DNA from: Acetobacteraceae bacterium
GTDB lineage: Bacteria; Pseudomonadota; Alphaproteobacteria; Acetobacterales; Acetobacteraceae
DNA length: 64,000 nt
NCBI GenBank assembly: GCA_019750465.1
Contig: JAIEOP010000050.1
Location: 2,529 to 66,528 of the forward strand
Direction: 5' to 3'
The notes beneath the pieces are model-generated. The model was not told the DNA's origin. It did not search any database and saw only the letters and a program-made list of their open reading frames with translations. Of the stretch, positions 682 to 64,000 are shown piece by piece. A program made the position numbers and the translations under genes. Positions within the stretch are counted from its first letter, which is position 1. Each line of letters starts with the position of its first letter.

Positions 682-894
682 ATGCCCCTGCCGAACCCGA
701 TCAATGGCCACCTCCCGCCGCACCTGCGTGAGGTGTGCACCATCCTTGCCGCGGGGTTGGTGCGGCTGCGCAGCCGCGCTGCCGAGGATCATGCGCGGGA
801 TGCCGAGATAGCTCGGGGGGCGGGAGACAGTCGCCTTCACTCCACTGGCAGGCAGCGCCTGCATGCGAACCCCAACAGGAAGGGACTCGCATGA
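682..894 (+). CDS. small conserved ORF (70 aa) leading the recombinase module
   Basis: Its stop overlaps the DUF2924 start (ATGA at 891-894). A homologous ORF sits in the same position in the second module (62793..63050). The two copies differ by many third-position changes that are silent in this frame (P, L, R, V, L, A, G codons). Confidence 0.45.
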   Translation: MPLPNPINGHLPPHLREVCTILAAGLVRLRSRAAEDHARDAEIARGAGDSRLHSTGRQRLHANPNRKGLA

Positions 895-1388
895 CCAGAC
901 GATCCACCGCCGCGCCCACGCCGGCGCCCACCATCCGGAGGATCCCGCCGACGCAGGTGCTGAGTCGCCTCGCCGCACTGCAGGCGGCGCCGACTACCAC
1001 GCTGAAGGACCAGTGGCGGGAGCTTTTCGGCAAGGAGCCGCCGCCCTGGAACCGGGCCTACATCCAGAGCCGGCTGGCCTATCGCATCCAGGAGCTCGCG
1101 TATGGCGGGCTGAAGCCCGAAACCGTCGACCGGCTCGTGGCGCTGGGCGAGCAATTGGATGGCGGCAACGTCGTCCTGCGCCGTATTCGCGCCGACAGCC
1201 GCCCTCTGGCCGGCACGCGCCTGATCCGCGAATGGCAGGGCGTGCAGCACGTGGTCACCGTGCGCGTCAACGACTTCGAATTCGAGGGGCGGCCCTATCA
1301 GTCGCTGTCCGCCATCGCTCGCCACATCACCGGCACGCGGTGGAACGGCTGGACGTTCTTCGGGCTGCGCGCGCGAGGTGACGCATGA
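891..1388 (+). CDS. DUF2924-family protein (recombinase accessory candidate)
   Basis: ATG at residue 53 of ORF 735..1388. The sequence 'WRELFGKEPPPWNRAYIQSRLAYRIQELAYGGL...GRPYQSLSAIARHITGTRWNGWTFFGL' is typical of DUF2924 proteins found upstream of serine recombinases. Its stop overlaps the recombinase start (ATGA). Confidence 0.85.
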   Translation: MTRRSTAAPTPAPTIRRIPPTQVLSRLAALQAAPTTTLKDQWRELFGKEPPPWNRAYIQSRLAYRIQELAYGGLKPETVDRLVALGEQLDGGNVVLRRIRADSRPLAGTRLIREWQGVQHVVTVRVNDFEFEGRPYQSLSAIARHITGTRWNGWTFFGLRARGDA

Positions 1389-2737
1389 CCCGGCGCGCAC
1401 GCATCGAGCCGGCCATGCCGGCCACCACGAAGAAGTTGCGCTGCGCCGTCTACACCCGGAAGTCCACGGACGAGGGCCTCGAGAAGGAATTCAACACCCT
1501 CGACGCACAGCGCGACGCCTGCGAAGCGTACATCACCAGCCAGCGTGCCGAAGGGTGGATGCTGGTGCGCGACCGCTACGACGATGGCGGGTTCTCCGGC
1601 GGCACGCTGGAGCGGCCGGCGTTGCAACGCCTGCTGCGTGACATCCAGGCCGACCTGGTCGACGTGATCGTGGTCTACAAGATCGATCGGCTCAGCCGCT
1701 CGCTGATGGACTTCGCCAAGCTGGTGGAGGTGATGGACGCGCACGGCGTGACGTTCGTGTCCGTGACGCAGAGCTTCAACACGACCACCAGCATGGGTCG
1801 GCTGACGCTGAACATCCTGCTCAGCTTCGCGCAGTTCGAGCGCGAGGTCATTGGGGAGCGAATCCGGGACAAATTCGCAGCCTCCCGGGCGCGGGGGATG
1901 TGGATGGGGGGCAAAGTGCCGCTCGGCTACGACGTCGTGGCCAGGAAGCTGGTGGTGAATGAGGACGAAGCACCGCGGGTGCGCCGCGTCTTCGAGATCT
2001 TCGCCGAGACTGGGTCGGGCATCGAGACGGTGGCCCGTCTCCGGGCGGAGGGCCTCACCAGCAAGGCGGGCCGGCCGCTGGATAAAGGCGATGTCTACAA
2101 GCTACTGAACAACCGCACCTATGTCGGCGAGGCCGCGCACAAAGGGCAGGTCTATCCTGGCGAGCACCAGGGCATCGTGCCGTGGGAACTGTGGGATCGG
2201 GCGCATGCCGTGCTGCAGATCAGCCCTCGGGTCCGCGCCAACCAGAATCGGGCGCAGACGCCGGCGCTGCTGAAGGGGCTGATCTTTGGGGTGGACGGCC
2301 GGGCGCTGTCGCCGACCCACGCCAGGAAGAATGGCCGCCTCTACCGATACTACGTGGCGCAGCGCGTGCTGAAGGGCGACGCCGCGGGGGACGCCAGCAT
2401 CGTGCGCCGGGTGTCGGCGGCGGAGATCGAGGCTGCGGTGGTGGATCAGGTGCGGGCGCTGCTGCGGCAGCCAGAGATCGTGGTCGGCACCTGGCGTGCG
2501 GCGCGCGTGGAGGCGCCGGACCTGACCGAGGCCGAGACCCACGACGCGCTGTATCGGCTCGACCCACTGTGGGAGCAGTTGTTCCCGGCGGAGCAGGCGC
2601 GGATTGTCCGGTCCCTGGTAGAGCGGGTGGTAGTAGGGCCTGCCGGCGCCGACATTCGGCTGCGGCTGGATGGGCTCGGCGGCCTCGTCCGCGATCTCAC
2701 CGCCATCGCGCCGTCTGCCCTGAGGGCCGCGGCATGA
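1385..2737 (+). CDS. large serine recombinase (resolvase-type catalytic domain plus recombinase domain)
   Basis: 450 aa. The N-terminus 'LRCAVYTRKSTDEGLEKEFNTLDAQRDACEAYI' carries the catalytic-serine context. 'VIVVYKIDRLSRSLMDFAKLVE' and 'GRLTLNILLSFAQFEREVIGERIRDK' are canonical resolvase-domain motifs. The alternative start 'MPATTKK' is at 1415. Confidence 0.9.
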   Translation: MTRRARIEPAMPATTKKLRCAVYTRKSTDEGLEKEFNTLDAQRDACEAYITSQRAEGWMLVRDRYDDGGFSGGTLERPALQRLLRDIQADLVDVIVVYKIDRLSRSLMDFAKLVEVMDAHGVTFVSVTQSFNTTTSMGRLTLNILLSFAQFEREVIGERIRDKFAASRARGMWMGGKVPLGYDVVARKLVVNEDEAPRVRRVFEIFAETGSGIETVARLRAEGLTSKAGRPLDKGDVYKLLNNRTYVGEAAHKGQVYPGEHQGIVPWELWDRAHAVLQISPRVRANQNRAQTPALLKGLIFGVDGRALSPTHARKNGRLYRYYVAQRVLKGDAAGDASIVRRVSAAEIEAAVVDQVRALLRQPEIVVGTWRAARVEAPDLTEAETHDALYRLDPLWEQLFPAEQARIVRSLVERVVVGPAGADIRLRLDGLGGLVRDLTAIAPSALRAAA

Positions 2738-3129
2738 CGACCGCCACCAGCATCACGGTCCGGGTGCCGTTGGCGATCCGGCACCGGCCAGGCAGGAAGA
2801 CTGTCGTGACACCGGTGGCCGATGGCGTGGCGCCGGTCACAACGCGGGCCGACCCCACGCTGGTCAAGGCGCTGGCTAGGGGGTTCCGCTACCAGCGGAT
2901 GCTGGACGAGGGGCGCTACGCCTCGATCACCGAGATGGCTGCGGCGGAGCGAATCGAGCGCGGGTACCTGGGCAGCCTGCTGCGCCTGACCCTCCTGGCG
3001 CCCGACCTCGTAACCAACGCCCTCGACGGTCGGCACAGTCGGTCGGTCACCCTGGCCGCCTTGCTGGAGCCATTCCCCCTATGCTGGCGCAGCCAGGGCG
3101 AATTGTTCGGTAGCGACGGGTCGGGATAG
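2734..3129 (+). CDS. recombinase-associated small protein (131 aa)
   Basis: ATG at 2734 overlaps the recombinase stop (ATGA). I recognise 'ALARGFRYQRMLDEGRYASITEMAAAERIERGYLGSLLRLTLLAPDLVTNALDGR' as a conserved partner often encoded next to this type of recombinase. It looks HTH-like. Confidence 0.65.
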   Translation: MTTATSITVRVPLAIRHRPGRKTVVTPVADGVAPVTTRADPTLVKALARGFRYQRMLDEGRYASITEMAAAERIERGYLGSLLRLTLLAPDLVTNALDGRHSRSVTLAALLEPFPLCWRSQGELFGSDGSG

Positions 3130-3154
3130 TAACGTCCCCGGCCAGATTGCCATT

Positions 3155-6100
3155 ATGCGAAGGCAAAGTCCGTGGCATCTTGGGAGCGTGACAGGCCCCG
3201 TAATCGACAACCCGATTCTCAACAGCCCCTTTGCCGAGCCCTCCCGCCATTGGGAGCTCGACGAGAGCGGCATCCCCACCGGCACCCCGGCCCCCGGCCG
3301 GCGGCGCAGCGAATTCATCGTCCCCGTCCCCCCGCCGAAGCACAAGGTGAAGGCCCAGGCCACCCTCGACCTGGAGGATGAGTACGGGAAGCGCCAGCCG
3401 AACGACTACATCAATGAAATCAGGACGAAAGTTGCCCAATGGCGGTCCCTTGGCGAACAGGGCCTGCGGCCCGTCACGCCCGTCACGGCCCGCCTGCTAC
3501 GCCACTGGCGGGAACAGGGCCGGGCCCGCCCGCTCTTCTTCTGCCAGGTTGAGGCGGTGGAGACCGCCATCTGGCTGACCGAAGTCGCCCCCCGCGCCGA
3601 GACGGAGCGCCTGCGGACCCTCAATTCGGAGGCCAACCCGGACCTCCTGCGCATCGCCTTCAAGCTGGCGACCGGCGCCGGCAAGACCACCGTTATGGGG
3701 ATGCTGATCGCCTGGCAGACCCTCAACGCCGCCCGAACGCGCAACTCGACCCGCTTCACCGACGCCTTCCTGATCGTGGCCCCCGGCCTGACGGTGAGGG
3801 ACCGCCTGCGCGTGCTCCACCCGTCCGACCCGTCCAACATCTACGCCGCCCTCGACATCGTGCCGCGGGAGCTGCGCGACGATCTCCAGCGCGCCCGGAT
3901 CGTCATCACCAACTTCCATGCCTTCAAGAAGCGCGAAACGCTCGAGGCGCCGAAGCTGGCGAAGGAGATCCTGGCTGGCCGCACCGGGAAGGTGGAGCGC
4001 CCCGAAACCGACGGCCAGATGGCGCAGCGCATCTGCAAGGACCTGCTCGGCCGCAAGCGCATCATCGTCATCAATGACGAAGCCCACCACTGCTATCGCC
4101 AGAAGGTCGGCGCAGCGGATGACGCGAGCGCGAAGCTCGACGCTGAAGGCAAGGCGGAGGCCAAGAAGAACAACGCCGCCGCTCGCCTCTGGATCAGCGG
4201 CATCGAGGCTCTGCAACGCGTCGTCGGCCAGCCTGTCCTGGTCTACGACCTCTCCGCCACGCCCTTCTTCCTGCGCGGCTCGGGCTACCCCGAGGGCACG
4301 CTCTTCCCCTGGGTCGTCTCCGATTTCTCCCTGATCGACGCCATCGAATGCGGCATCGTGAAGGTGCCGCGCGTCCCGGTGCAGGACCTGCCAGGCGCCG
4401 ACGAACCGGTCTACCGCCACGTCTATCGCTACATCCAGGAACATTCGGATGTGAAGCTGCCCAAGGTTGGCCGGGCCAAGCAGGGCAAGCCGCTCACGCC
4501 CGACCAGCTTCCCTCCCAGCTCACCGGCGCGCTCCAGGCGCTCTACGGCCACTACCGCCAGGTGTTCGAGAACTGGGCCAGCCGCGGCGGCAGCACGCCG
4601 CCCGTCTTTATCGTGGTCTGCAACAACACCGCCACCTCCAAGCTCGTGCATGACTGGATCGCCGGCTACGAGCGCATCGAGACTGACGCCGAGGGCGCGG
4701 AGCGCCGCGTCATCGTGCCCGGCAACCTGCCGCTCCTCTCCAACGTCACCCAGGCCGGCATCGGCCAGAGCAGTATGGTCGAGCGCCCCGTCACCATCCT
4801 GATCGACAGCGAGGAACTCGAATCCGGCGAGGCCCTGTCGGACAACTTCCGCAAGCTGGCTGGACCCGAGATCGACGCCTTCAAGCGCGAACTCCGCGCC
4901 CGCGGCCGCCATGCGGAGGCCGAGACCGTCACCGACAGCGACCTGCTGCGTGAGGTGATGAACACCGTCGGCCAGCCCGGCCGGCTGGGCGAGCCGATCC
5001 GATGTGTGGTCTCCGTCTCCATGCTGACCGAGGGGTGGGATGCGCGCACGGTCACCCATGTGCTGGGTGTGCGCGCCTTCGGCACGCAATTGCTGTGCGA
5101 GCAGGTGATCGGCCGTGCGCTGCGCCGCGTCTCCTACGACCCGGTCGGCGTGGATGACGCTGGCAACGCCATGTTCGCGCCGGAGTATGCCGAGGTGCTG
5201 GGCATCCCCTTCAGCTTCGTGCCGGCCAATTCCAAGGCCGACTACACCCCGCCGAAGAAGACCACCCAGATTCATGCTGTGCTGCCGGAGCGTGCGGCGC
5301 TGGAAATCCGCTTCCCCCGCGTCATCGGCTATCGCACCGTGCTCCCGCCCGGTCGCATCACCGCTACCTTCACCAATGAAAGCCGCCTTGAGATCGATCC
5401 GACGGATGCGCCGCCCGAAGCCGTCAGCGCTGCCATCATCGGCGCCGAGCACACGCTAACGCTGAACGACCTCCGCCACCAGCGCGACACCACCATCGCC
5501 TTTCACCTGGCGGGCCACACGCTGCGCACCTGGTTCCGCGACAGCGAGGACCACCTGAAGCCATGGCTGTTCCCGCCGCTGCTCACCATCACGCGGCGCT
5601 GGATGGCGCAATGCCTGACCTGCCTGGGTGGCACCTTCCCGGCCTACCTGCTGTGGCGCGACATCGGCGACAAGGCGGCGGAGCGCATCTTCCGCGCCTG
5701 CACGCCCGAGGTCGCTGGCCCCGGCACACTGCGGCCCATCCTGGACCCCTACAACGAGGCCGGCAGCAGCCGCCATATGAGCTTCGCCACCACCAAGACC
5801 AACTTCTGGACCCCCGACGCGCAGAAATGCCAGGTCAACCTGATCGTCTGCGACGAGAATTGGGAGGCCGCGGCGGCGCAGGCGCTGGACGGCATGCCGG
5901 AGGTGCTGCGCTACGTGAAGAACGACCGGCTGGGCTTCGAAGTGCCCTATGTCGACGGCAGCACCGAGCGGCACTACCGGCCCGACTTCATCGTGGTGGT
6001 GGAGGACGGACGCGGCCCGGATGATCCGTTGCACCTCGTGCTGGAGGTGAAGGGCCGCCAGACCGCACAGGACGACGCAAAGCACGACACCATGCGCAAA

Positions 6101-6232
6101 CTCTGGGTGCCGGCGGTGAACGCGCTGGGGCGCTTCGGCCGCTGGGATTTTTGCCGGGTGGATGGACCCTATGGCGTGGATGAGATCATCCGGCGGCGGC
6201 TGAACGCCGACGCTCTCTCACGCGCCGCCTGA
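3155..6232 (+). CDS. res: Type III restriction-modification Res-like subunit (SF2 DEAH helicase plus C-terminal PD-(D/E)xK nuclease)
   Basis: 1025 aa. Walker A 'LATGAGKTTVMGMLIA' and motif II 'VINDEAHHCY' are present. The C-terminal 'YRPDFIVVVEDG...LHLVLEVKGRQ' fits PD...(D/E)xK. The N-terminal 'VIDNPILNSPF' is typical of this family, so GTG at 3188 is an alternative start. Confidence 0.85.
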   Translation: MRRQSPWHLGSVTGPVIDNPILNSPFAEPSRHWELDESGIPTGTPAPGRRRSEFIVPVPPPKHKVKAQATLDLEDEYGKRQPNDYINEIRTKVAQWRSLGEQGLRPVTPVTARLLRHWREQGRARPLFFCQVEAVETAIWLTEVAPRAETERLRTLNSEANPDLLRIAFKLATGAGKTTVMGMLIAWQTLNAARTRNSTRFTDAFLIVAPGLTVRDRLRVLHPSDPSNIYAALDIVPRELRDDLQRARIVITNFHAFKKRETLEAPKLAKEILAGRTGKVERPETDGQMAQRICKDLLGRKRIIVINDEAHHCYRQKVGAADDASAKLDAEGKAEAKKNNAAARLWISGIEALQRVVGQPVLVYDLSATPFFLRGSGYPEGTLFPWVVSDFSLIDAIECGIVKVPRVPVQDLPGADEPVYRHVYRYIQEHSDVKLPKVGRAKQGKPLTPDQLPSQLTGALQALYGHYRQVFENWASRGGSTPPVFIVVCNNTATSKLVHDWIAGYERIETDAEGAERRVIVPGNLPLLSNVTQAGIGQSSMVERPVTILIDSEELESGEALSDNFRKLAGPEIDAFKRELRARGRHAEAETVTDSDLLREVMNTVGQPGRLGEPIRCVVSVSMLTEGWDARTVTHVLGVRAFGTQLLCEQVIGRALRRVSYDPVGVDDAGNAMFAPEYAEVLGIPFSFVPANSKADYTPPKKTTQIHAVLPERAALEIRFPRVIGYRTVLPPGRITATFTNESRLEIDPTDAPPEAVSAAIIGAEHTLTLNDLRHQRDTTIAFHLAGHTLRTWFRDSEDHLKPWLFPPLLTITRRWMAQCLTCLGGTFPAYLLWRDIGDKAAERIFRACTPEVAGPGTLRPILDPYNEAGSSRHMSFATTKTNFWTPDAQKCQVNLIVCDENWEAAAAQALDGMPEVLRYVKNDRLGFEVPYVDGSTERHYRPDFIVVVEDGRGPDDPLHLVLEVKGRQTAQDDAKHDTMRKLWVPAVNALGRFGRWDFCRVDGPYGVDEIIRRRLNADALSRAA

Positions 6233-6251
6233 ATCCGGAAGACAGCGCAGC

Positions 6252-9110
6252 ATGGCCCGCCCGAAGAAGCTCAAGCCCGACGCACCCGCCACCGAGGTGG
6301 AGACGCTCGTCCACCCCGCCGATATCGCGCGCAAGAACATCCCAACCGCGGAGACCGCGGCGCTGATGGCGGAGGAGGAAGCGCGGGCTGAACCCAAACT
6401 CTATCCCCGCAACCCGGACCTGGACCCGCAACTGGTCTGGCGTGGGAAGGACGAGCAGGACAGCGCGCCGCTGGGGGTCGAGACGGTCCCCATCTACATC
6501 CAGGAGAAGCTGTATCCGGAGGCGCTGATCCGCGATCTGCAACGCGTGTCGGCGAAGGAAGCGGCACCGCAGGCCGATCTGTTCGGCAGCTTCGACCGCA
6601 TCACGGATGAGGCGGCGCGGCTCGAGTTCTACCAGCACGCCGAGAACTGGTCGAACCGGATGATCCTGGGCGACTCCCTGCTGGTGATGAACAGCCTGGC
6701 GGAGAAGGAAGGCCTTCGAGGCCAGGTGCAGATGATTTTCCTCGATCCACCCTACGGAATCAAATTCAGCAGTAACTGGCAGCCGAGCACGCGCACGCGC
6801 GATGTGAAGGAGGGCAAGGCCGAAGGGCTGTCGCGCGAGCCAGAGCAGATCAAGGCCTTCCGGGACACCTGGAAGGATGGCATCCACAGCTATCTGGCAT
6901 ATCTCCGAGATCGGCTGGCTGTAGCGCGGGAGCTATTGGCCGAAAGCGGTAGCATCTTCGTTCAGATCGGCGACGAGAATGTCCATGTTGTGCGTAGCCT
7001 TCTCGACGAAGTTTTCGGGCCAGCCAACTTCATCGGACAGATCGCTTATCAAAAGACCACCGGTGCGACCTCTGATTTTCTCGGCGGCACGCTCGACTAC
7101 CTGCTGTGGTTTGGAAAGAACCGTCAGCAAGCGAAATTTCGCGCCATGTACAATCTGAAAACAGCCGGCGAAGAGGGTGCGACCAAGTATCGCAAGTTGA
7201 TCCATCTCGATGGAGCGCGGAGACCTGCCGCAGAGGGCGAAGTCTCGGGTGCGACGGCGCTCCCAGATGGCTGGAAGTTGTACACCGACGACAACCTCAC
7301 CAGCCAAAGCGCCGGCCGCGAAAAAGGAGAAGGCGCAGCGTCCTGGTTTGAAGTAAAACATGACGGCCGAAGCTTTCTTCCGACGATGCAATCCCGTTGG
7401 AAAACCAACGAAGCTGGGATGGGCCGTCTCCAGGCCGCTGGGAGGCTTGAGCCTGCGCGGAACATACTGCGCTACGTGCGGAAGCTGGATGATTTTGCCG
7501 CAGTCGAGATCAACGATCTCTGGCGGGATATCGGCGGCATCCAAAGCCGAAGCGATCCGAAGGTGTACGTGGTCCAGACGTCCACTACGGCAATTGAGCG
7601 CTGCATGCTCATGACCACCGATCCTGGTGACCTCGTCTTCGATCCGACCTGCGGTTCCGGCACCACCGCCTTCGTCGCCGAGCAATGGGGCCGCCGCTGG
7701 ATCACCACCGACACCTCCCGCGTCGCCCTGGCGCTGGCACGCACGCGCCTCATGGCCGGGCGCTTCCCCGCCTACCTGCTGCGCGACAGCCGTGAGGGCG
7801 CAGCGAAGGAGGGCGAGATCACAGGCCGTCCACCCGAGGAAGGCCCCTTCCGCCACGACATCCGCCAGGGCCTCGTGCTGGAGCGTGTGCCGCACGTCAC
7901 GCTGAAATCCATCGCCAACAACGCTGAGATCGATGTCATCGACGCCAATTGGGCGCCGAAGATCGAAGCCGCGCTCGCTACCCTCAACGCCGCTCTCGGG
8001 ACAAAGCATGCGGAGTGGCAGGTTCCCCGCAACCTGCCCGGAGACGCGAAACCGGTGGTGCAGGAGGCGCATGCGGCATTCTGGGCCACCCGCCGCGCTC
8101 GGCAGGCGGAGATGGACGCCTCCATCGCCCGGAACGCCGATACGGAATTCCTGCATGACCGGCCCTACACGAAGAAGAACGCGGTCCGCGTCACCGGCCC
8201 CTTCACGGTGGAGAGCCTCTCGCCCCACCGCGTCCTGCCCGCGGATGAGGAAGACCAGGCCGTGATGGAGGCGCTGGCCCAGGAAGCGGGCGAGCCCGTG
8301 CCCGAGCGCCGCCCGCTCCGCACCCGGCCGGACGCTGGCGATGACTTCGTGACCGCCGTGCTGGACAACCTGCAGAAGGCCGGCGTGCAGAACATGAAGA
8401 AGGATGAGCGCCTGACCTTCGCCACGCTGCGCCCCTGGCCTGGCGGCAGCCGCGTCTCGGCCGAGGGCGAGTACGAAGAAGCCGGCGTGAAGAAGCGTGC
8501 CGCCATCGTCATCGGTCCCGAATACGGCACGGTCGGCCCCGACCTGGTGCGCGAGGCCGCGCGCGAATGCCGCGACTGGGCTGACAGCATGGTGGTCTGC
8601 GGCTTCGCCTTCGACCCGCAGGTGGGCGACAGCACGATGAACCTCGGCCGCCTGGTGGTGCTGAAGGCGCGCATGAGCCAGGAGCTGCGCGCCGCCGAAG
8701 CCTACAAGGCCGGCGGGGGCAACCTGTTCGTGGTGTTTGGCGAGCCGGATATCGCGCTCGACCAGGCCGACGGTGAATGCGTCGTGCGCCTGAAGGGCGT
8801 GGACATCTTCGACCCCACCACGGGTGAGGTCCGTTCCTCCGGCCGCGTCGAGGATGATGTTGCCTGCTGGTTTGTCGACACCGACTATGACGGCGACAGC
8901 TTTTTCGTCCGCCATGCCTACTTCCTCGGCGGCAAGGACCCCTTCGAGAAGCTCAAGACCGCGCTGAAGGCCGAAGTGGACGAGGACGCCTGGGCGAGCC
9001 TCTACCGCACCGAAAGCCGCCCCTTCGCGAAGCCGAAATCAGGCCGGATCGCCGTGAAGGTGATCAACCACTATGGGGACGAGGCGATGCGGGTGTTTCG
9101 CGTGCCGTGA
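6252..9110 (+). CDS. mod: beta-class N6-adenine/N4-cytosine DNA methyltransferase, Type III Mod-like, 952 aa
   Basis: The catalytic motif IV 'IFLDPPYGIKF' precedes the AdoMet motif I 'VFDPTCGSGTTAFVAEQ' (beta-class order). About 450 aa lie C-terminal to motif I, a tail much longer than in textbook Mod subunits. It sits 19 nt downstream of res. Confidence 0.85.
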   Translation: MARPKKLKPDAPATEVETLVHPADIARKNIPTAETAALMAEEEARAEPKLYPRNPDLDPQLVWRGKDEQDSAPLGVETVPIYIQEKLYPEALIRDLQRVSAKEAAPQADLFGSFDRITDEAARLEFYQHAENWSNRMILGDSLLVMNSLAEKEGLRGQVQMIFLDPPYGIKFSSNWQPSTRTRDVKEGKAEGLSREPEQIKAFRDTWKDGIHSYLAYLRDRLAVARELLAESGSIFVQIGDENVHVVRSLLDEVFGPANFIGQIAYQKTTGATSDFLGGTLDYLLWFGKNRQQAKFRAMYNLKTAGEEGATKYRKLIHLDGARRPAAEGEVSGATALPDGWKLYTDDNLTSQSAGREKGEGAASWFEVKHDGRSFLPTMQSRWKTNEAGMGRLQAAGRLEPARNILRYVRKLDDFAAVEINDLWRDIGGIQSRSDPKVYVVQTSTTAIERCMLMTTDPGDLVFDPTCGSGTTAFVAEQWGRRWITTDTSRVALALARTRLMAGRFPAYLLRDSREGAAKEGEITGRPPEEGPFRHDIRQGLVLERVPHVTLKSIANNAEIDVIDANWAPKIEAALATLNAALGTKHAEWQVPRNLPGDAKPVVQEAHAAFWATRRARQAEMDASIARNADTEFLHDRPYTKKNAVRVTGPFTVESLSPHRVLPADEEDQAVMEALAQEAGEPVPERRPLRTRPDAGDDFVTAVLDNLQKAGVQNMKKDERLTFATLRPWPGGSRVSAEGEYEEAGVKKRAAIVIGPEYGTVGPDLVREAARECRDWADSMVVCGFAFDPQVGDSTMNLGRLVVLKARMSQELRAAEAYKAGGGNLFVVFGEPDIALDQADGECVVRLKGVDIFDPTTGEVRSSGRVEDDVACWFVDTDYDGDSFFVRHAYFLGGKDPFEKLKTALKAEVDEDAWASLYRTESRPFAKPKSGRIAVKVINHYGDEAMRVFRVP

Positions 9111-56827: not shown

Positions 56828-56866
56828 GACTTCCCACGGCTGGGAAGTCGATGCGGCCCCCGCATC
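56828..56866 (-). terminator. two tandem GC hairpins at the 3' end of the HTH gene (no U-tract)
   Basis: GACTTCCCA-cggc-TGGGAAGTC (56828-56849) and GATGCGG-ccc-CCGCATC (56850-56866). The second overlaps the stop codon. Confidence 0.3.
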
Positions 56867-57431: not shown

Positions 57432-57488
57432 CCCATCAGATCCGAATCATCTGACTGGCTTGCCCGACGATCTTGGCAACCTGGCAAC
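57366..57488 (-). repeat. six copies of GTTGCCA (TGGCAAC on the plus strand)
   Basis: Copies at 57366, 57397, 57408, 57426, 57474 and 57482 (7 nt each). They span the 5' end and upstream region of the HTH gene. Confidence 0.7.
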
Positions 57489-57633
57489 CTCGATTTTTAC
57501 CAGACGCTAGCGATGTTGCGCGCTTCCGCCCCCCGCATACGATATCGCCCGGGAGGAACCATGGCCTCGACTTCGAGAGAGGCGCGACCTCTCGACGCGC
57601 CACGAATCTACACGCCGCAGATTCCGCGGCGCA

Positions 57634-57675
57634 ATGCACTCATGCGCAGGATCGCTGCCTTTCGCACGAGTGCAT
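57634..57675 (-). terminator. 13-bp inverted repeat (12/13 match) downstream of the 184-aa gene, no U-tract
   Basis: ATGCACTCATGCG (57634-57646) pairs with CGCACGAGTGCAT (57663-57675). It lies 15 nt past the stop at 57690. Confidence 0.3.
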
Positions 57676-57689
57676 CGCGCCGTTCTTCC

Positions 57690-58244
57690 TCAGGCCGCTA
57701 TGCGAGGCCGCGGCACCAGCCCGTAGTGCGTCGCCAGCACGGCAAGCCCAGCGGTGAACATGCCCTGCGCCTGGGCCGGCGCGATCGGGCGTCCCTGCCA
57801 GCCCTGCGCCATGGCCCACTCCCGGAGCGAGCACTCGAGCCCGAGCACGTGCCACACCGCCGAACCGCCCGGACTTCCTGGCCCGCCCAGCGCCTCAAGA
57901 GCGGCTGCGACCCTATCCCGTGCCGCAACCTGGCGCTCGGTCATTGTGTCGCCGCCGCCCTTCGGCATGCGGAGCAGTTGCGTCGTCCGCATGCCATCAA
58001 GCGCCGCGGATCGAAACTGCGTCCGGAACATGCAGCCGGCCTCGTGCATCTGCGAGGTGATGGTGCCGTTGGTCAGCATGGCGCCGAGCGTGTCGACCGC
58101 GCGGCGATGCTGAACGGGCGTTCCCGTCTCCGGGTCGGTCTCGCGCACTGCCTCGCCAACACCACCGTGCTGCAGACGCCAGGGCGAGGGCTTCGACAGG
58201 TCCTCGCGCTGAGTCGTTCTCGTGCGCTTGCGCTTACCGGCCAT
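57690..58244 (-). CDS. hypothetical protein (184 aa)
   Basis: ATG at 58244 ('MAGKRKRTRTTQRED'). The layout resembles small phage or mobile-element regulatory proteins, but I recognise no firm motif. Confidence 0.5.
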   Translation of the reverse strand: MAGKRKRTRTTQREDLSKPSPWRLQHGGVGEAVRETDPETGTPVQHRRAVDTLGAMLTNGTITSQMHEAGCMFRTQFRSAALDGMRTTQLLRMPKGGGDTMTERQVAARDRVAAALEALGGPGSPGGSAVWHVLGLECSLREWAMAQGWQGRPIAPAQAQGMFTAGLAVLATHYGLVPRPRIAA

Positions 58245-58497
58245 TGCTGGGCCCTCCCTGTCGTCGCCCCCACCGGCGTACCGCCTCGTTGATGACGGCC
58301 TGGCGCAGTACCGCGTCCCCGATCTCATCAAGGACGAGCGTCGCCACGCCCTGCTCGTGCCAAGCACGACGCCGCATCGCATCCAGCTCCGGGCCTGTGG
58401 TGGGGCTCGGTCCGCGATCGAGGCAACCGCGCGGCGGTCTGGGACCGCCGGGCAGCGCCATGCGCGACGCGGAGCTGCAGTCGCGCACCACCATCAC
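58234..58497 (-). CDS. hypothetical small protein (start uncertain)
   Basis: The ORF overlaps the stop and start of its neighbours (4 nt and 11 nt). Only the C-terminal half ('ELDAMRRRAWHEQGVATLVLDEIGDAVLRQAVINEAVRRWG') looks protein-like. Confidence 0.35.
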   Translation of the reverse strand: MMVVRDCSSASRMALPGGPRPPRGCLDRGPSPTTGPELDAMRRRAWHEQGVATLVLDEIGDAVLRQAVINEAVRRWGRRQGGPSNGR

Positions 58498-58994
58498 GAC
58501 GCCATCCTGCGTGCGGCGGCGGCCTTAAGCAGGCTCTCCGGCAAGGCCGGAGCGCCACCCGACGGCCAACGTGACTGCCGCTGCGGCTGCCACGGCCCGG
58601 GCGTGATGCCGAAGTGCTGCAGCACCAGCTCCAGGCGATTGGTCAGTGCGACAGCGGCATGCGCCCGCAGGAAGGGCATGACGTGCTGTGTGCGGAAGGG
58701 CAGCCAGTCCGCCGCCTCCGGGATCCAGACACCTTCGACGATGTCGCCTCCGGTGCAGAACTCAGCGTAGTGCCCGCCTTCGTCACGGATGACCCAGTAG
58801 AAGACCTCTGCGCCGTCGCACAGCGCGCGCTCCATACCTTCGCTGCCGCGGCTAGAGCGCAGGACCTTCGAGAGCGATTCGTGCCAGTCCAGCCCATCGG
58901 CAAGCCCGAGCTGATTGGCGCGGACGTACCAGTCGGGTTCCGGCAGTTCCACGATTTCGCCGTGCCGGTAGGTGGTGAGGGTGTCGGTGCTCAT
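58494..58994 (-). CDS. hypothetical protein (166 aa)
   Basis: ATG at 58994. The composition is balanced ('FYWVIRDEGGHYAEFCTGGDIVEGVWIPEAADWLPF'). No recognised motif. Confidence 0.5.
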   Translation of the reverse strand: MSTDTLTTYRHGEIVELPEPDWYVRANQLGLADGLDWHESLSKVLRSSRGSEGMERALCDGAEVFYWVIRDEGGHYAEFCTGGDIVEGVWIPEAADWLPFRTQHVMPFLRAHAAVALTNRLELVLQHFGITPGPWQPQRQSRWPSGGAPALPESLLKAAAARRMAS

Positions 58995-59092
58995 GATGCG
59001 CGTCCCTGATCGTGTTCTGGAGAAAGCCGGCGGTCACAGCAGCATGGTGGCGCACGGGCGCGATGCGGCACCTCGGGCGCATGCGAGCCAGC

Positions 59093-59404
59093 GGGTCCGG
59101 GTGGGTCCAGGTCTGGGTCCGGGTTGGGTCCGGGTCCGCGGCGCCGAAAAACGGCGGAAATCCGCCATGGGTCCGGGTGGTCCGGGTGGGGCCGGGTTTC
59201 CCCCCTACTCTTCCGTACACCCCGTATGCGCGTGTCATGCGCGATGTGCGTGACATGCGTGATGCACAAACCGGCTGCTACGAAAGAGAACACAACAGAC
59301 CCGGACCACCCGGACCCACCCGGACCCACCAAGGAATTCCGCGGCTTTCCGGCGACTGGCATACCCGGACCCTTACCCGGACCCACCGTCGCAGACCCGG
59401 ACCC
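59093..59404. repeat. iteron field: 7x GGGTCCGGGT-type repeats facing 6x ACCCGGACCC-type repeats around a central region of about 100 bp
   Basis: Left-arm copies start at 59093, 59103 (GGGTCCAGGT), 59115, 59126, 59169, 59179 (9 nt) and 59188 (GGGGCCGGGT). Right-arm copies start at 59299 (9 nt), 59308, 59318, 59363, 59375 and 59395. The centre holds CATGCGCGATG (59236) and CATGCGTGATG (59254). Confidence 0.85.
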
Positions 59405-59421
59405 ACTGGCCATGGCCGCGC

Positions 59422-61833
59422 TCATCGCGATGCCTCCTGGCTCGGCTGCCGGCGATATCGGCGTTCGCGTTTGGCGCCAGTGCCATGGCCGCCCTTGCGT
59501 GCGCGCGTTTGCTTGAAGCCCATGCTGATCAGGCTGCGGACGACGCGATTCTGATCGGCCTGCGTCCAGCGCCCCTTTTCGATGGCGAGCGCGTGCTGCA
59601 GCACCTCGGCCACCGAGACGTCCTGCAATGGCGAGGGCCGCGGGCGTCGGTAGGCGTGGCTCTCGCCGAGCCCGTTCTGCATCCACTCGGTGTCGTTCTC
59701 GAGATAGCTCTCGATCAGATCGTCCCAGGCATCGCCCTGATAGCGCTCGGCCTGCTCCTCCGCGGCCAGGCCATCGAGCGCCTGCGTCTCCAGCCACCAG
59801 GGCTCGTTGCCGCGAAACCGATCCCGTGCCTCGGCCCAGAGCTGATCCCGATCCTGCTCCAGCGCCGGCAAATCAATGCTGCCGCACACCACCGGCCAGA
59901 ACCGCCGACCGCCAGTCGGGTCTTTGAGATACCCGCCCTCCGGATTCACGCTCCCGGCAAAGATGCATTGCCGCGGCAGATCCACCAGCCGCTTGCCATA
60001 GGGCGGCCGAAAGCGATCCTGCGTGCGCGACATGAATGCCTTGATGGTGCTGACCTCGGCACGGCCCATCGTGTCGAGCTCGGCGATCTCGATGATCCAG
60101 ACGCCGCGTGTTTCCATCGCCGCGTCCTTGCTGCTGAGGTCAGAGAGGCGGTCGGCAAACCAGGGCTTGGCGATCGCCATCAGGGCGGAGGATTTCCGGA
60201 TGCCCTGCGGTCCTTCGAGGATCAGCGCACAATCCGCCTTGCAGCCGGGGATGTAGATCCGCGCGACGGCCGACATCATCCAGCGCGGCCCGATGGCGCG
60301 GTGATAGGGCGTGTCCTCCGCGCCGAGGTAGCGCACCAACCAGGCATCGAGGCGCGGCGTGCCGTCCCAGGCCAGTGCGTCCAAGTGGTCGCGCACCGGA
60401 TGAAACAGCCGGTCACGCGCCACGACCTCCACCGCCTGGCCGGCGATGGACATCGGCACCATGATCTCCTGGTGCTGCAGCCAATTCGCCACCAGCGCGT
60501 CATCGCGGTCGGCCCATGGCGTGTCAGCCCAACTGGCTGAACCGCTGATCCAGGGCGGTGGCTTGCGGGCGACCGTCGTGGTGGCGAAGGCATCGTGCCA
60601 GAGGACGCCGTCCCATTCCGGCGCGCCGCGCAGGGCGGTGATAGCGTTCGCCAGCACGGGCCGGGGCTCGCCGTCCTCGTTGAGCAGCAGATCCTTGCGC
60701 CATTCGTTGGAGAAGGCAGCTGCGGGTCGCGTTGCTGCGATCAGCATCCGCACCGCGTCCGCGCCGTCCGATTGCAGGACGTCGTTGAAGTCCATCGCCG
60801 GTGGCGGCTCGGCAACGCTCACGTCGTGCCCACGGGCTCGCAGCACGGTGACAGCCTGGCGAAGCTGCTGGTCGGCCTTGCTGTTCGGCTCGTCGCCGTC
60901 GCGCGCGATGATGACCGGCGCGCCGTCGGGCAGGGGCACACGGGCGATGTTGCTGATGCCGAGGCAGGCCCAGCATTCCTGGCCGGTGGCCTGCCAGACG
61001 GAGAGCGCTGTCTCGACGCCTTCGCAGAGCACCACCGGCGCGATGCCGGGAAAGCGCACGGCGGCGACATCGGCCCAGCCGTCGTGCGCCTTGTTGGTGC
61101 GCTTCTGGACCTTGAGCGGTGCCTTGCGCCCGTCCTCGGTGAGATAGATCAGTTGCAGGCCGTGAACCTGCCCCTCGGCGTCCATCGCCAGCGCGACCAG
61201 CGCGCCATAGTGGTTGAACGCGTTCGGCAAGAAGCGGATGGATGGCGGGAGCGGCGTGGCCGTGATGCCGCGACGGTGCAGGTAGGTCTCGACACGCGTG
61301 CCGGCCGCGTCCTCGCAGCCGGCGACGATCTCGGCGACCTTCGCGGCTCGCTTCGCGTCCTCCGCCGCTTTCTTCGTGGCGGACGATGAGGGGCGGTCCT
61401 GCCATGGTGGTGGTCCGGGCGCGTCGTCCGCGGTGGCGGCTGGCTCCGGCGAGGCCGGGTCGATCGATGGCAGCGTCACGTCGCCAATGTCAGATGGCGA
61501 CACCGGTGGTGGCGGTGATGGCTCAGCCGTCTTACGGCGTGGTCCCGCCGGCATCCCGAGCCATTGGCGGGACCAGTCAAGTGCTGCGCCGTTGGTGAGC
61601 CCGCGCCGATGCCGCAGCAGCTCCAGGCCGGCGCCGCCACTGCCATGCTCGTGGTCGAACCAGCGCCCGGCGTCGTCGCCCTCGAGCTCGACTGCGATGC
61701 TGCCATGCGTGCCGAAGCGCAGCTGCGTCGGCGTGGACAGCTCGCGGTTCGGCTCGCCCAGCAACTCGCGCGCGAGATCGCCGATGCGTGCGTTGAGTGC
61801 CTGCACCACGTCCTTTGCGCTCGCGCCGCTCAT
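59422..61833 (-). CDS. primase-helicase (N-terminal primase-like region, Toprim, VirE/D5-type P-loop NTPase)
   Basis: The Toprim region is 'VVLCEGVETALSVWQATG...VIIARDGDEPNSKADQ'. The VirE-type Walker A is 'LILEGPQGIRKSSA', followed by 'WIIEIAELD' and 'FRPPYGKRLVDLPRQCIFAGSVN'. The likely start is ATG at 61833 ('MSGASAKDVVQAL'). Confidence 0.85.
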   Translation of the reverse strand: MSGASAKDVVQALNARIGDLARELLGEPNRELSTPTQLRFGTHGSIAVELEGDDAGRWFDHEHGSGGAGLELLRHRRGLTNGAALDWSRQWLGMPAGPRRKTAEPSPPPPVSPSDIGDVTLPSIDPASPEPAATADDAPGPPPWQDRPSSSATKKAAEDAKRAAKVAEIVAGCEDAAGTRVETYLHRRGITATPLPPSIRFLPNAFNHYGALVALAMDAEGQVHGLQLIYLTEDGRKAPLKVQKRTNKAHDGWADVAAVRFPGIAPVVLCEGVETALSVWQATGQECWACLGISNIARVPLPDGAPVIIARDGDEPNSKADQQLRQAVTVLRARGHDVSVAEPPPAMDFNDVLQSDGADAVRMLIAATRPAAAFSNEWRKDLLLNEDGEPRPVLANAITALRGAPEWDGVLWHDAFATTTVARKPPPWISGSASWADTPWADRDDALVANWLQHQEIMVPMSIAGQAVEVVARDRLFHPVRDHLDALAWDGTPRLDAWLVRYLGAEDTPYHRAIGPRWMMSAVARIYIPGCKADCALILEGPQGIRKSSALMAIAKPWFADRLSDLSSKDAAMETRGVWIIEIAELDTMGRAEVSTIKAFMSRTQDRFRPPYGKRLVDLPRQCIFAGSVNPEGGYLKDPTGGRRFWPVVCGSIDLPALEQDRDQLWAEARDRFRGNEPWWLETQALDGLAAEEQAERYQGDAWDDLIESYLENDTEWMQNGLGESHAYRRPRPSPLQDVSVAEVLQHALAIEKGRWTQADQNRVVRSLISMGFKQTRARKGGHGTGAKRERRYRRQPSQEASR

Positions 61834-61992
61834 CGGGCGCCTCGAGCGAGTGGTGGGACTGGGTCGAGAATCGGCATCGGGCCTCCGCGGCGAAGACCCG
61901 AAAGAAGCCACACGACATGTGCCTGGTCCGCGTTGGAGCCGGTCCGGCCCCTAGCCGGGCGGAGGGTTCAACCCTTCAGCCGCGCTGCGACG

Positions 61993-62682
61993 CTATCCCC
62001 AACCGCGCTTCGCACCGCCGCGCTGCGAGGCGGGCAGTCGGATCAGCGTCGCCATCGCGTCGGCAAGGTTCTGCGAGACCGGCTCGCCGTCCACCGTCTG
62101 CTCGCGGAACCAGTCAGCCAGCAGCTCCTTCTTGCCTTGGCCGCGCGCGCTGATCCGGTTCTCTGCGATCGCCCGATCCAGGAGGTCCATGTACGGCGTG
62201 CGATACGGCTCCCCCGTTTCCGGATCCGCCGCGGGAGCTGGCTGCAGCGCCTCGACGACCGGCCAGATCGCCAGCACCATGAAGCGCGGCACGCGGATGT
62301 CGATGAACTGGCCGTCGGCCATGGTCAGCACGCCGCCCTGCACATCAGCGCGGCCGGCACGCCAGTGTTCGGGGGTGATGGTACTGTGGTGACCGGAGTG
62401 CAGGTCCCAGCCGTCCAGGGCATGCGTCCATGGGCGGGACTGCGTCGAGGACAGCCGTCCCTGCGCATGCAGATCTCCGTCCCGCAGCGCCACCTGGACC
62501 TCGCGGGCTGCCTGGCTGGGCGCGCCGCCCCGCGGGTTCTCGGTTTGCCGCCAAGGCGGGAGGGCGGGATCCGGCTGCGACGCGATGTCGCCGCGGGCGA
62601 CAGCCCGTTCGATCTGGGTTGCAACATGATCAATGGCTTGGCTGAGGCGCCACTGCGCCCGATCCAACTTTTCGATCAGCAT
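61993..62682 (-). CDS. hypothetical protein (229 aa)
   Basis: ORF track 61993..62682. The composition is protein-like in the C-terminal half ('PYRTPYMDLLDRAIAENRISARGQGKKELLADWFREQ'). No recognised motif. Confidence 0.45.
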   Translation of the reverse strand: MLIEKLDRAQWRLSQAIDHVATQIERAVARGDIASQPDPALPPWRQTENPRGGAPSQAAREVQVALRDGDLHAQGRLSSTQSRPWTHALDGWDLHSGHHSTITPEHWRAGRADVQGGVLTMADGQFIDIRVPRFMVLAIWPVVEALQPAPAADPETGEPYRTPYMDLLDRAIAENRISARGQGKKELLADWFREQTVDGEPVSQNLADAMATLIRLPASQRGGAKRGWG

Positions 62683-62792
62683 TCCAGCCCTCCGTCGCCT
62701 CGCAGAGGCAGGAACATATACCGAACATCAGCGGGGTTGAAGGGTTCACCCCCTCGCTCGCCGGCTGGCCAGACCGGCTCGCAGGTGGCGAC

Positions 62793-63050
62793 ATGGCGCC
62801 TTCGTGGGCTCGAGTGCCGCCCATGCCAGCCACCGCCGCCGCCCCAGGCCGTCCCCCGCCGAACCACCTCCCACCGCACCTCCGCGAGGTCTGCGCCATC
62901 CTGGCCGCCGGCCTGGTGCGGCTGCGCAGCCGGGTTGCCGAGGATGAAGCGCGCGATGCCGAGCTAGCTCGGGGGGCGGGAGAGGTTCGCCTACACTCCA
63001 CCGCCCACCAGCGCCTGCATGCGAACCCCAACAGGAAGGGACTCGCATGA
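62793..63050 (+). CDS. small conserved ORF, paralogue of 682..894
   Basis: 'LPPHLREVCAILAAGLVRLRSR...RLHANPNRKGLA' aligns with the copy at 682..894. ATGA overlap with the DUF2924 start. The true start is uncertain. Confidence 0.4.
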   Translation: MAPSWARVPPMPATAAAPGRPPPNHLPPHLREVCAILAAGLVRLRSRVAEDEARDAELARGAGEVRLHSTAHQRLHANPNRKGLA

Positions 63051-63544
63051 CCAGACGATCCACCGCCGCGCCCGCGCCGGCACCAACCATCCCGAAGATC
63101 CCGCCCACTCAGGTGCTGCCGCGGCTCGCCGCGCTGCAGACCGCGCCCACCGCCGACCTGAAGGAGCAATGGCGGGAGCTGTTCGGTAAGGAGCCTCCGC
63201 CCTGGAACCGCGCCTACATCCAGAGCCGACTGGCGTACCGGATCCAGGAACTCGCCTATGGCGGGCTGAAGCCCGAGACCGTCGATCGGCTGGTGGCGCT
63301 GGGCGAGCAGTTGGACGGCGGCAACGTGGTGCTGCGTCGCATCCGCGCCGATAGCCGGCCGCTCGCCGGCACGCGACTGATCCGGGAATGGCAGGGCGTG
63401 CAGCACGTGGTCACGGTGCGGGTCAATGACTTCGAATTCGAGGGGCGGCCCTACCAGTCCCTGTCCGCCATCGCTCGCCACATCACCGGCACCCGCTGGA
63501 ATGGCTGGACGTTCTTCGGACTGCGCGCGCGAGGTGACGCATGA
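63047..63544 (+). CDS. DUF2924-family protein (second copy)
   Basis: 165 aa. The C-terminal 124 aa are identical to the copy at 891..1388, despite about 35 silent nucleotide differences by hand count. Confidence 0.85.
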   Translation: MTRRSTAAPAPAPTIPKIPPTQVLPRLAALQTAPTADLKEQWRELFGKEPPPWNRAYIQSRLAYRIQELAYGGLKPETVDRLVALGEQLDGGNVVLRRIRADSRPLAGTRLIREWQGVQHVVTVRVNDFEFEGRPYQSLSAIARHITGTRWNGWTFFGLRARGDA

Positions 63545-64000
63545 CCCGCCGCGCTCGCATCGAGCCGGCCATGCCGGCGACCACGAAGAAGCTCCGCTGC
63601 GCCGTCTACACGCGGAAGTCGACGGATGAGGGGCTGGAGAAGGAATTCAACACCCTCGACGCGCAGCGCGATGCTTGTGAGGCGTATATTACGAGCCAGC
63701 GCGCCGAGGGATGGATGCTGGTGCGCGACCGCTACGACGATGGCGGCTTCTCGGGCGGCACGCTGGAGCGGCCGGCGCTGCAACGCCTGCTGCGCGACAT
63801 CCAGGCCGACCTGATTGACGTGATTGTGGTCTACAAGATCGACAGGCTCAGCCGCTCGCTGATGGATTTCGCCAAGCTGGTGGAGACGTTCGAGGCGCAC
63901 CGGGTGACTTTCGTCTCGGTGACGCAGAGCTTCAATACCACGACCAGCATGGGGCGGCTGACGCTGAACATCCTGCTGAGCTTCGCGCAGTTCGAGCGAG
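63541..64000 (+). CDS. large serine recombinase (second copy), 5' part only, continues beyond the window
   Basis: My own translation from ATG 63541 gives 'MTRRARIEPAMPATTKKLRCAVYTRKSTDEGLEKEF...VIVVYKIDRLSRSLMDFAKLVETFEAHRVTFVSVTQ'. It is nearly identical to 1385..2737, with a few substitutions. Confidence 0.85.
   Translation, partial: MTRRARIEPAMPATTKKLRCAVYTRKSTDEGLEKEFNTLDAQRDACEAYITSQRAEGWMLVRDRYDDGGFSGGTLERPALQRLLRDIQADLIDVIVVYKIDRLSRSLMDFAKLVETFEAHRVTFVSVTQSFNTTTSMGRLTLNILLSFAQFER

Follow-up and report, generated by a model that had tools for sequence, protein, structure and literature searches.

The window analysed here is a 64-kb stretch of an Acetobacteraceae bacterium genome (assembly GCA_019750465.1, contig JAIEOP010000050.1, positions 2,529 to 66,528), which carries on its plus strand two diverged copies of a four-gene operon built around a large serine recombinase (LSR), with an attachment (att) site at 11.1 kb lying between them. 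In copy 1 (module 1), a small open reading frame (ORF; 682–894) is followed by a DUF2924 protein (891–1388), an LSR of 450 aa with the motif YTRKSTDEG (1385–2737), and a fourth gene, orf4 (2734–3129). Copy 2 (module 2) comprises a small ORF (62,793–63,050), a DUF2924 protein (63,047–63,544), and the first 153 codons of an LSR (63,541–64,000) whose catalytic motif is identical to that of copy 1; recombinase 2 is cut by the window end, and module 2 continues past it. An earlier reading made from the letters alone (hereafter, the sequence-only reading) had described a four-gene module present twice, of which the small ORF, the DUF2924 gene, and the LSR start are indeed found in both copies, whereas orf4 is visible in module 1 only. 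Taken together with the att site, the two copies are read here, with somewhat more confidence than doubt, as the operons of two distinct but related integrative elements in head-to-tail order, the interior between the att site and module 2 belonging to the second of them.

Recombinase 1 matches the resolvase catalytic domain (PF00239, E 1.5e-39, residues 21–173) and, above its Pfam cut-off, the Recombinase domain (PF07508, E 3e-13), together with a weak zinc ribbon (PF13408, E 8e-5) whose 23.4 bits fall just below the cut-off of 25.3 bits. Judged by these domains, it is a member of the large serine recombinases, and its PHROG family (phrog_95, E 1.5e-105) is annotated as ‘integrase’. The DUF2924 proteins of copies 1 and 2 match PF11149 with E values of 5e-48 and 2e-48, respectively, the former also falling into phrog_11806, and orf4 belongs to phrog_14161 (E 3e-35); all four genes of the operon have relatives in phage protein families. 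Stop and start codons overlap as ATGA at 891–894, 1385–1388, and 2734–2737, a layout from which the four genes are predicted to be translationally coupled. A scan for LSR relatives, limited to one genome per species, returned more than 443, and the best 80 loci, whose gene order was followed by tblastn, are almost all from Acetobacteraceae (Roseomonas-group genera), often with several in the same genome; essentially all of these 80 loci contain all four genes in the same order. In a plasmid collection, recombinases of this type occur on Ralstonia, Shinella, and Paracoccus megaplasmids at 57–66% identity, with no close relative among the matches listed. No solved structure is related in sequence to DUF2924 or orf4, and the AlphaFold model of DUF2924 (predicted local distance difference test score, 69) has no structural neighbour, its best Foldseek E value against the PDB being 0.25. 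Look-ups of the exact proteins found neither DUF2924 copy on record. In seven loci (L016, L018, L022, L024, L025, L030, and L036), extra orf4 copies and stubs consisting of a recombinase C-terminus plus orf4 lie 1–6 kb downstream of intact modules, and these may be the remains of decayed arrays.

A repeat finder detected a single long direct repeat whose copies start 62,156 bp apart, in which positions 706–1844 align with 62,862–64,000 over 1139 nt at 88.6% identity and with no indels (130 of the 1139 positions differ). Ungapped identity at this offset is 16–40% per 50-nt bin up to position 700 and 74–96% from 701 to the window end. The differences are concentrated at third codon positions: across positions 1/2/3 they number 5/4/48 in DUF2924, 7/1/39 in the LSR N-terminus, and 7/5/14 in the small ORF, corresponding to 8, 5, and 9 amino-acid changes, respectively, with 157 of 165 DUF2924 residues and 148 of 153 LSR residues identical. 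All eight DUF2924 replacements lie in the first 40 residues; its last 123 codons contain 35 synonymous and no non-synonymous differences, which makes DUF2924 an extremely conserved protein. Using the Nei–Gojobori method, synonymous (dS) and non-synonymous (dN) divergence were 0.473 and 0.030 for DUF2924, 0.456 and 0.024 for the LSR (152 codons), and 0.47 and 0.027 for the two genes combined (318 codons, dN/dS 0.057), the small ORF being less constrained (dN/dS 0.36). The longest identical run between the copies is 65 nt, and no gene-conversion tract was found. Most of what the sequence-only reading had said of the repeat survives this comparison. It had placed a colinear alignment of non-identical copies at about 700–1844 and 62,860–64,000 with the same offset, and had counted about 35 nucleotide but no amino-acid differences in the C-terminal part of DUF2924 and about 5 replacements among many silent changes in the recombinase N-terminus; the last two counts are exact, 39 of the 47 recombinase differences lying at third positions. 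Its phrase ‘purely synonymous’ drift is accurate for the C-terminal part of DUF2924 and a slight overstatement for the three genes overall. The alignment and dN/dS comparison that it had proposed, run on the available overlap, show that both recombinase operons are under strong purifying selection (dN/dS 0.06), as it had supposed, and judged by selection both elements are functional.

Modules of other genera resemble copy 1 more closely than its partner in the window does: over 953 nt of DUF2924 and LSR, copy 1 is 91.3–92.6% identical to modules of Falsiroseomonas, Humitalea, Roseococcus, and others, compared with 89.1% to copy 2, while copy 2 is about equally distant from all compared modules. 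The flanks upstream of the two modules are also unrelated. Directly upstream of module 1 lies a ‘type A’ backbone gene, up125 (272–649, plus strand; phrog_13283, E 4e-14), homologues of which occupy the same position in about 20 loci at 34–80% amino-acid identity (tblastn), whereas module 2 is directly preceded by a ‘type B’ backbone on the minus strand (55,472–62,682), which is also found directly upstream of the module in loci L033, L041, L046, and L080. Because copy 1 is nearer to the modules of other genera and the upstream backbones are of two types, the copies are, on this comparison of relatives, best described as two lineages of a horizontally moving operon rather than an in-place duplication, in agreement with the earlier view that they are old copies belonging to related elements and not a recent insertion-sequence-like copy. 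An in-situ segmental duplication followed by divergence, or a composite transposon-like island bounded by the modules, would fit the shared orientation of the copies and the abrupt start of homology at 706 and 62,862. However, that start coincides with the small ORF common to all 80 loci and thus represents the edge of a conserved operon; the affinities of copy 1 and the two different backbone types argue against duplication, while a dS of 0.47, the lack of a conversion tract, and identical runs no longer than 65 nt argue against a unit recombining through its ends. Flanking copies that are 88.6% identical also differ from the near-identical copies of a composite transposon, and both forms of this alternative are hardly credible.

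The boundary that the sequence-only reading did not recognize is an att site, which follows module 1 at a distance of 8.4 kb. A non-coding end block, conserved over about 290 nt (10,835–11,121, aligned in 15 loci), which includes a P arm (about 11,099–11,121), is followed by the core TGGAGC (11,122–11,127, plus strand), equal to the last six bases (GCTCCA) of tRNA-Gly(GCC), and then by a P' arm, AGCGGTGGGAACCGGGGTCCAACCTTCTCTGG (11,128–11,159, plus strand), which matches 30 of 32 consensus positions. The P arm and P' form a 47-bp site with perfect 8-bp inverted repeats at its ends (AGGTTGGA / TCCAACCT). Read on the minus strand, P' is organised like a degenerate 3' half of a tRNA (T arm, 7-nt acceptor strand, U73, and CCA), and a terminator-like hairpin comes after it in the window. 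What the end block and core abut differs between loci: in 13 related ones it is an intact tRNA-Gly(GCC) gene, joined at its 3' end and encoded on the opposite strand, and in the window plus 21 other loci from genomes or viruses it is P'. P' itself occurs in 22 genome or viral loci and, in a metagenome scan, in at least 120 loci, of which 106 have enough left flank for comparison and 74 of these carry the end block to the left of P'. Dozens of loci from different genera share the end block, which may contain accessory binding sites or a promoter. The core is always located 0.8–10 kb downstream of a recombinase on the same strand; in two loci (L015 and L127) there is no cargo between them, and the core lies 797 nt past the LSR stop. 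The P-core-tRNA junction is accordingly read as a putative attR and the P-core-P' junction as a putative attP. The modules, which had served as the earlier reference points of the structure, would then be internal, and the element boundary would be the att site at 11,099–11,159. No second att-like site was found in the 64-kb window, including at 50–57 kb and near the left edge of the type B backbone.

Two further candidates connected with this site were rejected. A hairpin seen by eye in the end block, considered as a structured RNA, is matched by 213 of 500 shuffles; the block has no Rfam match even at E <= 1 and no covariation, and its RNAalifold consensus is weak (-11.8 kcal/mol). A 10.4-kb mobile unit extending from the small ORF to the P arm was also discarded, no P'-like sequence being present before either small ORF.

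The repeat is reproduced in independent data. Read-level checks were based on independently assembled contigs, not raw reads, of four drinking-water metagenome runs, which contain 98–99% of the sampled words of the window. The unique junctions of both modules are matched by independent contigs with 0 mismatches (339–762, 2678–8132, and 61,106–63,038), and depth is flat, at about 55–68x in one run, from the defence genes downstream of module 1 through the interior to the primase block upstream of module 2. Because the junctions of both modules are reproduced and depth is flat, the repeat is real and the assembly neither collapsed nor chimeric, which bears out the earlier statement that no assembly duplication is involved. 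An artefact of this kind, or a mis-join at a 45-nt att core repeated in the community, could be suspected from the fact that 31-mer contigs break at 11,116–11,145 in all four runs and that the core, which has several alternative neighbours, reaches a depth about 7x that of its flanks. Nevertheless, 130 of 1139 positions distinguish the copies, a single read is longer than the repeated core, the module junctions recur without mismatch between runs, and depth on the two sides of the core co-varies over the four samples (68/61, 15.7/12, 10.2/9.1, and 10.5/9.7), leaving an artefact very improbable. These contigs (contigs only, not reads) contain no joint between 0.7 kb and 62.8 kb; the joints listed in them have sides of 20–34 nt and are read as chance joins between paralogous metabolic genes. 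The suggestion of a composite island, with recombination between the modules deleting or mobilising its interior, is not upheld, given 11% divergence, a longest identity of 65 nt, and no such joint in the contigs; moreover, a serine recombinase works at att sites and not at its own gene.

The link between enzyme and site appears from the way in which they vary together. The 19 LSRs associated with one form of the P arm (P1) are 87–99.8% identical among themselves and 78–91% identical to the 10 LSRs associated with the other (P2), and both LSR clades occur in both junction types. A Pfam scan of all window genes retained by a filter on GC content at third codon positions (GC3; about 55 genes) found no tyrosine integrase or transposase in the window. 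Phage AcaML1, which carries a homologous module and integrates into a tmRNA gene, points the same way. We infer that the serine recombinase acts at this att site, with attP and the tRNA-Gly(GCC) 3' end as partners; the assignment is held at this level because co-variation of P arm and LSR could arise by descent through physical linkage alone, which is a point against it.

Comparison of loci sharing one side of the core shows that partners are exchanged there. Loci L138 and L188 have left flanks that are 99.4% identical and right sides that differ, with the breakpoint exactly at the core; L188 and L171 have right sides that are 99.2% identical and different left sides; and L206, L095, and L127 combine a 100% identical right side with three different left sides. 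The left flank of L138 and L188 is host chromosome containing a conserved UbiX-UbiD-UbiTUV-P450 cluster, which indicates, on the strength of these comparisons, that host-core-P' junctions with different occupants exist. Since the same host flank carries two different P' sides, P' seems to travel with the inserted DNA.

On this evidence, each element would consist of a four-gene operon reading toward a right end composed of a variable defence slot, the end block of about 290 nt, and the att site, and the recombinase would exchange strands at the core between attP and the tRNA-Gly(GCC) 3' end. Element A would then extend from the left edge of the window to 11,127, including up125, module 1, the restriction-modification (RM) genes, the OLD nuclease, and the end block, while element B would run from 11,128, the first base of P', rightward past the window, with catabolic genes as cargo for about 44 kb, followed by the primase/regulator backbone and module 2. 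The 62,156-bp offset would correspond to roughly one element length; both operons would be kept by purifying selection because each serves its own element, and their 11% divergence would keep homologous recombination from collapsing the pair. The pair could have arisen when a second element inserted into the attL or attR of one already present, via the tRNA-like P' and an evidently unconstrained B arm, or else by fusion of two circles. Both the assignment of the interior to element B and the origin of the pair are what we infer from this arrangement. Tandem insertion of two related elements was one of two explanations offered by the sequence-only reading, and it is the better of them: the two plus-strand modules, 62,156 bp apart, have a P-core-P' junction (11,099–11,159) between them. 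Only two other same-contig pairs are present among the loci listed, in Roseococcus sp. SDR and Rubritepida flocculans, and in both the modules are 66–68 kb apart, in the same orientation, 88.7% and 77.9% identical, respectively, and accompanied by an attP-type junction that follows the left one. In these pairs, 58.4 and 57.6 kb separate P' from the next recombinase, as against 52.4 kb in the window, and the right-hand element of Roseococcus ends at a tRNA-Gly.

Several observations weigh against this tandem arrangement. The outer ends of the pair, on the left of element A and on the right of element B, would lie outside the window, which itself contains neither an attL or attR for the pair nor a tRNA-Gly, and the inverted repeats of the att site are centred 1–2 nt off the shared core. 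The interior genes (11.3–55.3 kb) include no integrase or transposase, none of them occurs beside any other module, and by content they could be chromosomal. In locus L211 (7188–7660), the att site is reversed (P', core, P arm, and end block) 160 nt after the host UbiTUV-P450 cluster and is followed by a type I HsdR gene, while L188 has the same host cluster on the other side of the core. P' in L211 lies about 190 nt from housekeeping genes, next to chromosome or as a short relic, and is thus not always the start of a long element arm; the arrangement may be an inversion or a relic site. In two contigs from metagenome and IMG/VR data, L206 and L085, TGGAGC and then P' come right at the end of a tyrosine integrase gene, the P' side of the tyrosine-integrase locus being 100% identical to that beside the serine-recombinase elements L095 and L127. 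In the four metagenome runs, the core and P' reach about 7x the flanking depth and the modules about 4x, so that P' outnumbers modules, and an attP configuration is present inside a finished 4.2-Mb chromosome. Finally, canonical large serine integrases (phiC31- and Bxb1-type) are not known to recombine attP with attL, attR, or another attP, and a site-specific origin of the pair would therefore need relaxed rules. No tRNA genes adjoin the candidate attL sites. The reading of L138 and L188 as attL was not confirmed either, since relatives with the P450 flank and without the element show no tRNA-Gly there; no empty attB came to light for this candidate, an outcome that adds weight to a chromosomal rival.

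Some of these observations would be easier to accommodate if the window contained two separate chromosomal insertions, the core and P' being a chromosomal pseudo-site or relic, the catabolic block being chromosome, and module 2 with its primase backbone an unrelated insertion or a decayed remnant that has lost its left att site. The position of P' within 190 nt of a housekeeping cluster in L211, the tyrosine-integrase element that uses or abuts the same core and P', the purely metabolic interior unique to this genome, and the excess of P' over modules all fit such a scheme; in addition, 70% of P' sites show the ‘attP’ arrangement, for which a common landing pad would account more readily. By contrast, the window has no other att-like sequence, even at 50–57 kb; the next module follows P' after 52–58 kb and in the same orientation in three genera; and the same host flank (99.4% identity) is joined to two different P' sides. 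The DNA after P' also shows no synteny among more than 100 loci but unrelated accessory cargo, such as multicopper oxidase, a chromate transporter, sulfatase, an efflux adaptor, sulfide:quinone oxidoreductase/SulP, and type VI secretion system genes; protein queries were used for this comparison, as tblastx gave hundreds of spurious off-frame matches at 70% GC. Two separate insertions are accordingly an unlikely explanation, albeit one of some substance.

The metabolic gene block (11,303–55,311), in which all GC3-supported genes are metabolic by Pfam, encodes an esterase, flavin monooxygenases, two ABC transporters, four TctC receptors, CoA ligases and transferases, thiolase-like enzymes, an acyl-CoA dehydrogenase, and a TetR regulator. 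In the light of the variable DNA that follows P' elsewhere, it most likely represents the variable arm of element B, and the ‘catabolic island’ previously placed between the modules is thus upheld as to the position of the metabolic genes and not as a separate island. ARAGORN predicts a 93-nt tRNA-Arg(GCG) at 32,733–32,825, inside a TctC receptor gene on the other strand, which is almost certainly a false positive. An ORF of about 68 aa at 54,700–54,910 on the minus strand, dodecin-like by eye and below the GC3 filter, lies in a lower-GC gap between a flavin monooxygenase gene and the type B backbone.

A further alternative assigns the stretch to a plasmid or megaplasmid, the product of two related attP-bearing replicons that fused homologously in the module or site-specifically, with nothing integrated at tRNA-Gly. 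It draws on the intact attP at the junction, the primase/helicase encoded by the backbone, the Ralstonia megaplasmids that carry the same recombinase module with metal-resistance cargo, and four isolate contigs of 54–76 kb with one module and attP, a size class that also includes the 62–68-kb spacings between paired modules. Against it, the attP configuration is found both inside the finished 4.2-Mb chromosome and in contigs of 0.26–1.6 Mb, the analogous Roseococcus SDR pair is anchored at tRNA-Gly, the window has no partition, relaxase, or conjugation genes, and the depth at the junction equals that of the rest of the stretch (there being no chromosomal reference for comparison). Such a fused replicon is therefore improbable, more so than separate chromosomal insertions. 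The four isolate contigs, L001, L008, L017, and L021 (54.1, 64.1, 76.5, and 59.7 kb, respectively), each with one module and an intact attP, could be complete circular forms.

Returning to the two elements in tandem, their origin may be sought in P' itself. Tentatively, P' may be a mimic of the tRNA 3' half carried by every element of the family, which upon insertion leaves a competent landing pad (host-core-P') and so creates a self-propagating hotspot that gives rise to head-to-tail arrays. It is conceivable, with a similar degree of doubt, that such a hotspot recruits serine-recombinase elements and even tyrosine-integrase phages, and that the four-protein system works outside the strict attP × attB rule. 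If true, P' as a landing pad would account for why attP-type junctions are so numerous, why partners change, and why pairs occur.

The right end of element A carries defence genes on the plus strand, as the sequence-only reading had noted. A ResIII helicase-nuclease (3155–6232) and an N6/N4 DNA methylase (6252–9110) form what is, by domain content, a type III-like RM pair, and they are followed by an OLD-family nuclease in two ORFs (9107–9997 and 9921–10,790). The same cargo follows other modules in L020, L063, and L068, while elsewhere the slot contains different cargo of 0–9 kb. Both L020 and L068 have a ResIII protein with 98% identity, yet the recombinase of L068 shows only 73% identity to recombinase 1, a pattern which suggests that the defence cargo has been exchanged between diverged backbones at the boundary between orf4 and the cargo. 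The OLD nuclease (AAA_15 ATPase plus OLD TOPRIM) is split by a frameshift, which is real in the population because the four metagenome runs show no indel variant.

The type B backbone consists of minus-strand genes for a DUF3489/helix-turn-helix (HTH) protein (55,472–56,311), a 108-aa protein (56,409–56,735), a DUF6456 GafA-like protein (57,690–58,382), a 166-aa protein (58,494–58,994), a DUF7146-Toprim-VapE primase/helicase (59,422–61,911), and g229 (61,993–62,682), the domains being assigned by Pfam; the earlier remark that module 2 is preceded by a replication block is justified by the primase/helicase. The left edge of this backbone is the stop codon at 55,472 in every genome carrying it. 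Exact matches to the g229 and 166-aa proteins are confined to Logan contigs of less than 2 kb, which come from the same drinking-water runs. DUF6456 is a domain of GafA, the activator of the Rhodobacter gene transfer agent (PMC9638019), and the DUF6456 protein and the neighbouring DUF3489/HTH protein are possible candidates for regulators of the element. On the type A side, the contigs of all four runs include a form without the 88 nt at 107–194, upstream of up125, at about full depth, which represents a length variant in the population.

These results redraw the map of this genome region, with the element boundary placed at the att site at 11.13 kb and the modules internal, so that about 44 kb of catabolic genes, a type III-like RM system, and an OLD nuclease are probably mobile cargo. 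The family is characterised by a four-gene serine recombinase operon linked to the 3' end of tRNA-Gly, with a defence slot between the two, and its members often occur as head-to-tail pairs. It is widespread, and apparently no description of it exists in the literature searched. If acceptance of attL- or attR-like partners proves true, it would bear both on the accretion of genomic islands and on the use of such recombinases as genome-engineering tools.

Among known systems, staphylococcal cassette chromosome (SCC) elements, including SCCmec, are non-conjugative islands that employ the large serine recombinases CcrAB or CcrC and integrate at the 3' end of a conserved gene (rlmH). In SCC composite islands, elements lie head to tail with att-type repeats between them, each with its own diverged ccr genes and a primase/helicase block beside the recombinase. 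The window resembles them in its recombinase next to a primase/helicase block, its head-to-tail diverged modules, and its att-type junction, but differs in the tRNA-Gly target, the DUF2924 and orf4 partners, and the host phylum. Although CcrB is the best NCBIfam match of the recombinase, its score of 133.8 bits is far from the cut-off of 900, and by this measure the recombinase is not a member of the Ccr family. Islands and integrative and conjugative elements (ICEs) that target tRNA genes accrete in tandem at one landing site via tyrosine integrases, leave the tRNA intact, and usually share 15–50 bp with it. The present family likewise keeps the tRNA 3' end intact and has an element att arm that resembles a tRNA 3' half, whereas its serine enzyme, 6-bp shared sequence, and lack of conjugation genes set it apart. 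Indeed, no type IV secretion, coupling protein, or relaxase domain was detected by Pfam among the GC3-supported genes of the window, which distinguishes it from ICEs; terminase, portal, capsid, and tail genes, the hallmarks of a prophage, are also missing from the 64 kb, and PHROG relatives are limited to the recombinase module and a few backbone genes.

Parts of the operon itself are found in other mobile elements. In Wolbachia phage WO (PMC11376236), as in Ralstonia phages and megaplasmids, DUF2924 lies directly beside a large serine recombinase, and a Ralstonia megaplasmid has a DUF2924-recombinase-orf4-like trio like that of the window, followed by chromate and nickel resistance cargo. The identity of the window LSR module is 37% to WO and 57% to Ralstonia, and WO differs in being a prophage with structural genes; these likenesses concern the modules. 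The closest parallel is AcaML1, a temperate phage of Acidithiobacillus caldus, which has a Gp5-Gp4-Gp3-Gp2 module in the same order and with the same overlapping stops and starts. The small ORF is 35% identical to Gp5, DUF2924 43% to Gp4, the LSR 52% to Gp3, and orf4 41% to Gp2 (37% to Gp1), with blastp E values for Gp5, Gp4, Gp3, and Gp2 of 1e-3, 1e-33, 3e-151, and 7e-19, respectively; Gp3 and Gp2 are annotated as ‘site specific recombinase large/small subunit’. AcaML1 is 59.4 kb long and integrates into a tmRNA gene with 10-bp repeats (PMC3826726, Table 2), so that, as in the family described here, a module at the genome end reads toward an att site at the end of a tRNA-like target gene. AcaML1 is, however, a complete myovirus, whereas the elements of the window have no virion genes and carry metabolic and defence cargo; the family also differs in its tRNA-Gly(GCC) target, in a shared core of only 6 bp, and in protein identities of only 35–52%. 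What distinguishes the elements of this window is therefore a combination, in which an AcaML1-type recombinase operon is joined to an organisation like that of SCC composites and tRNA-linked island arrays.

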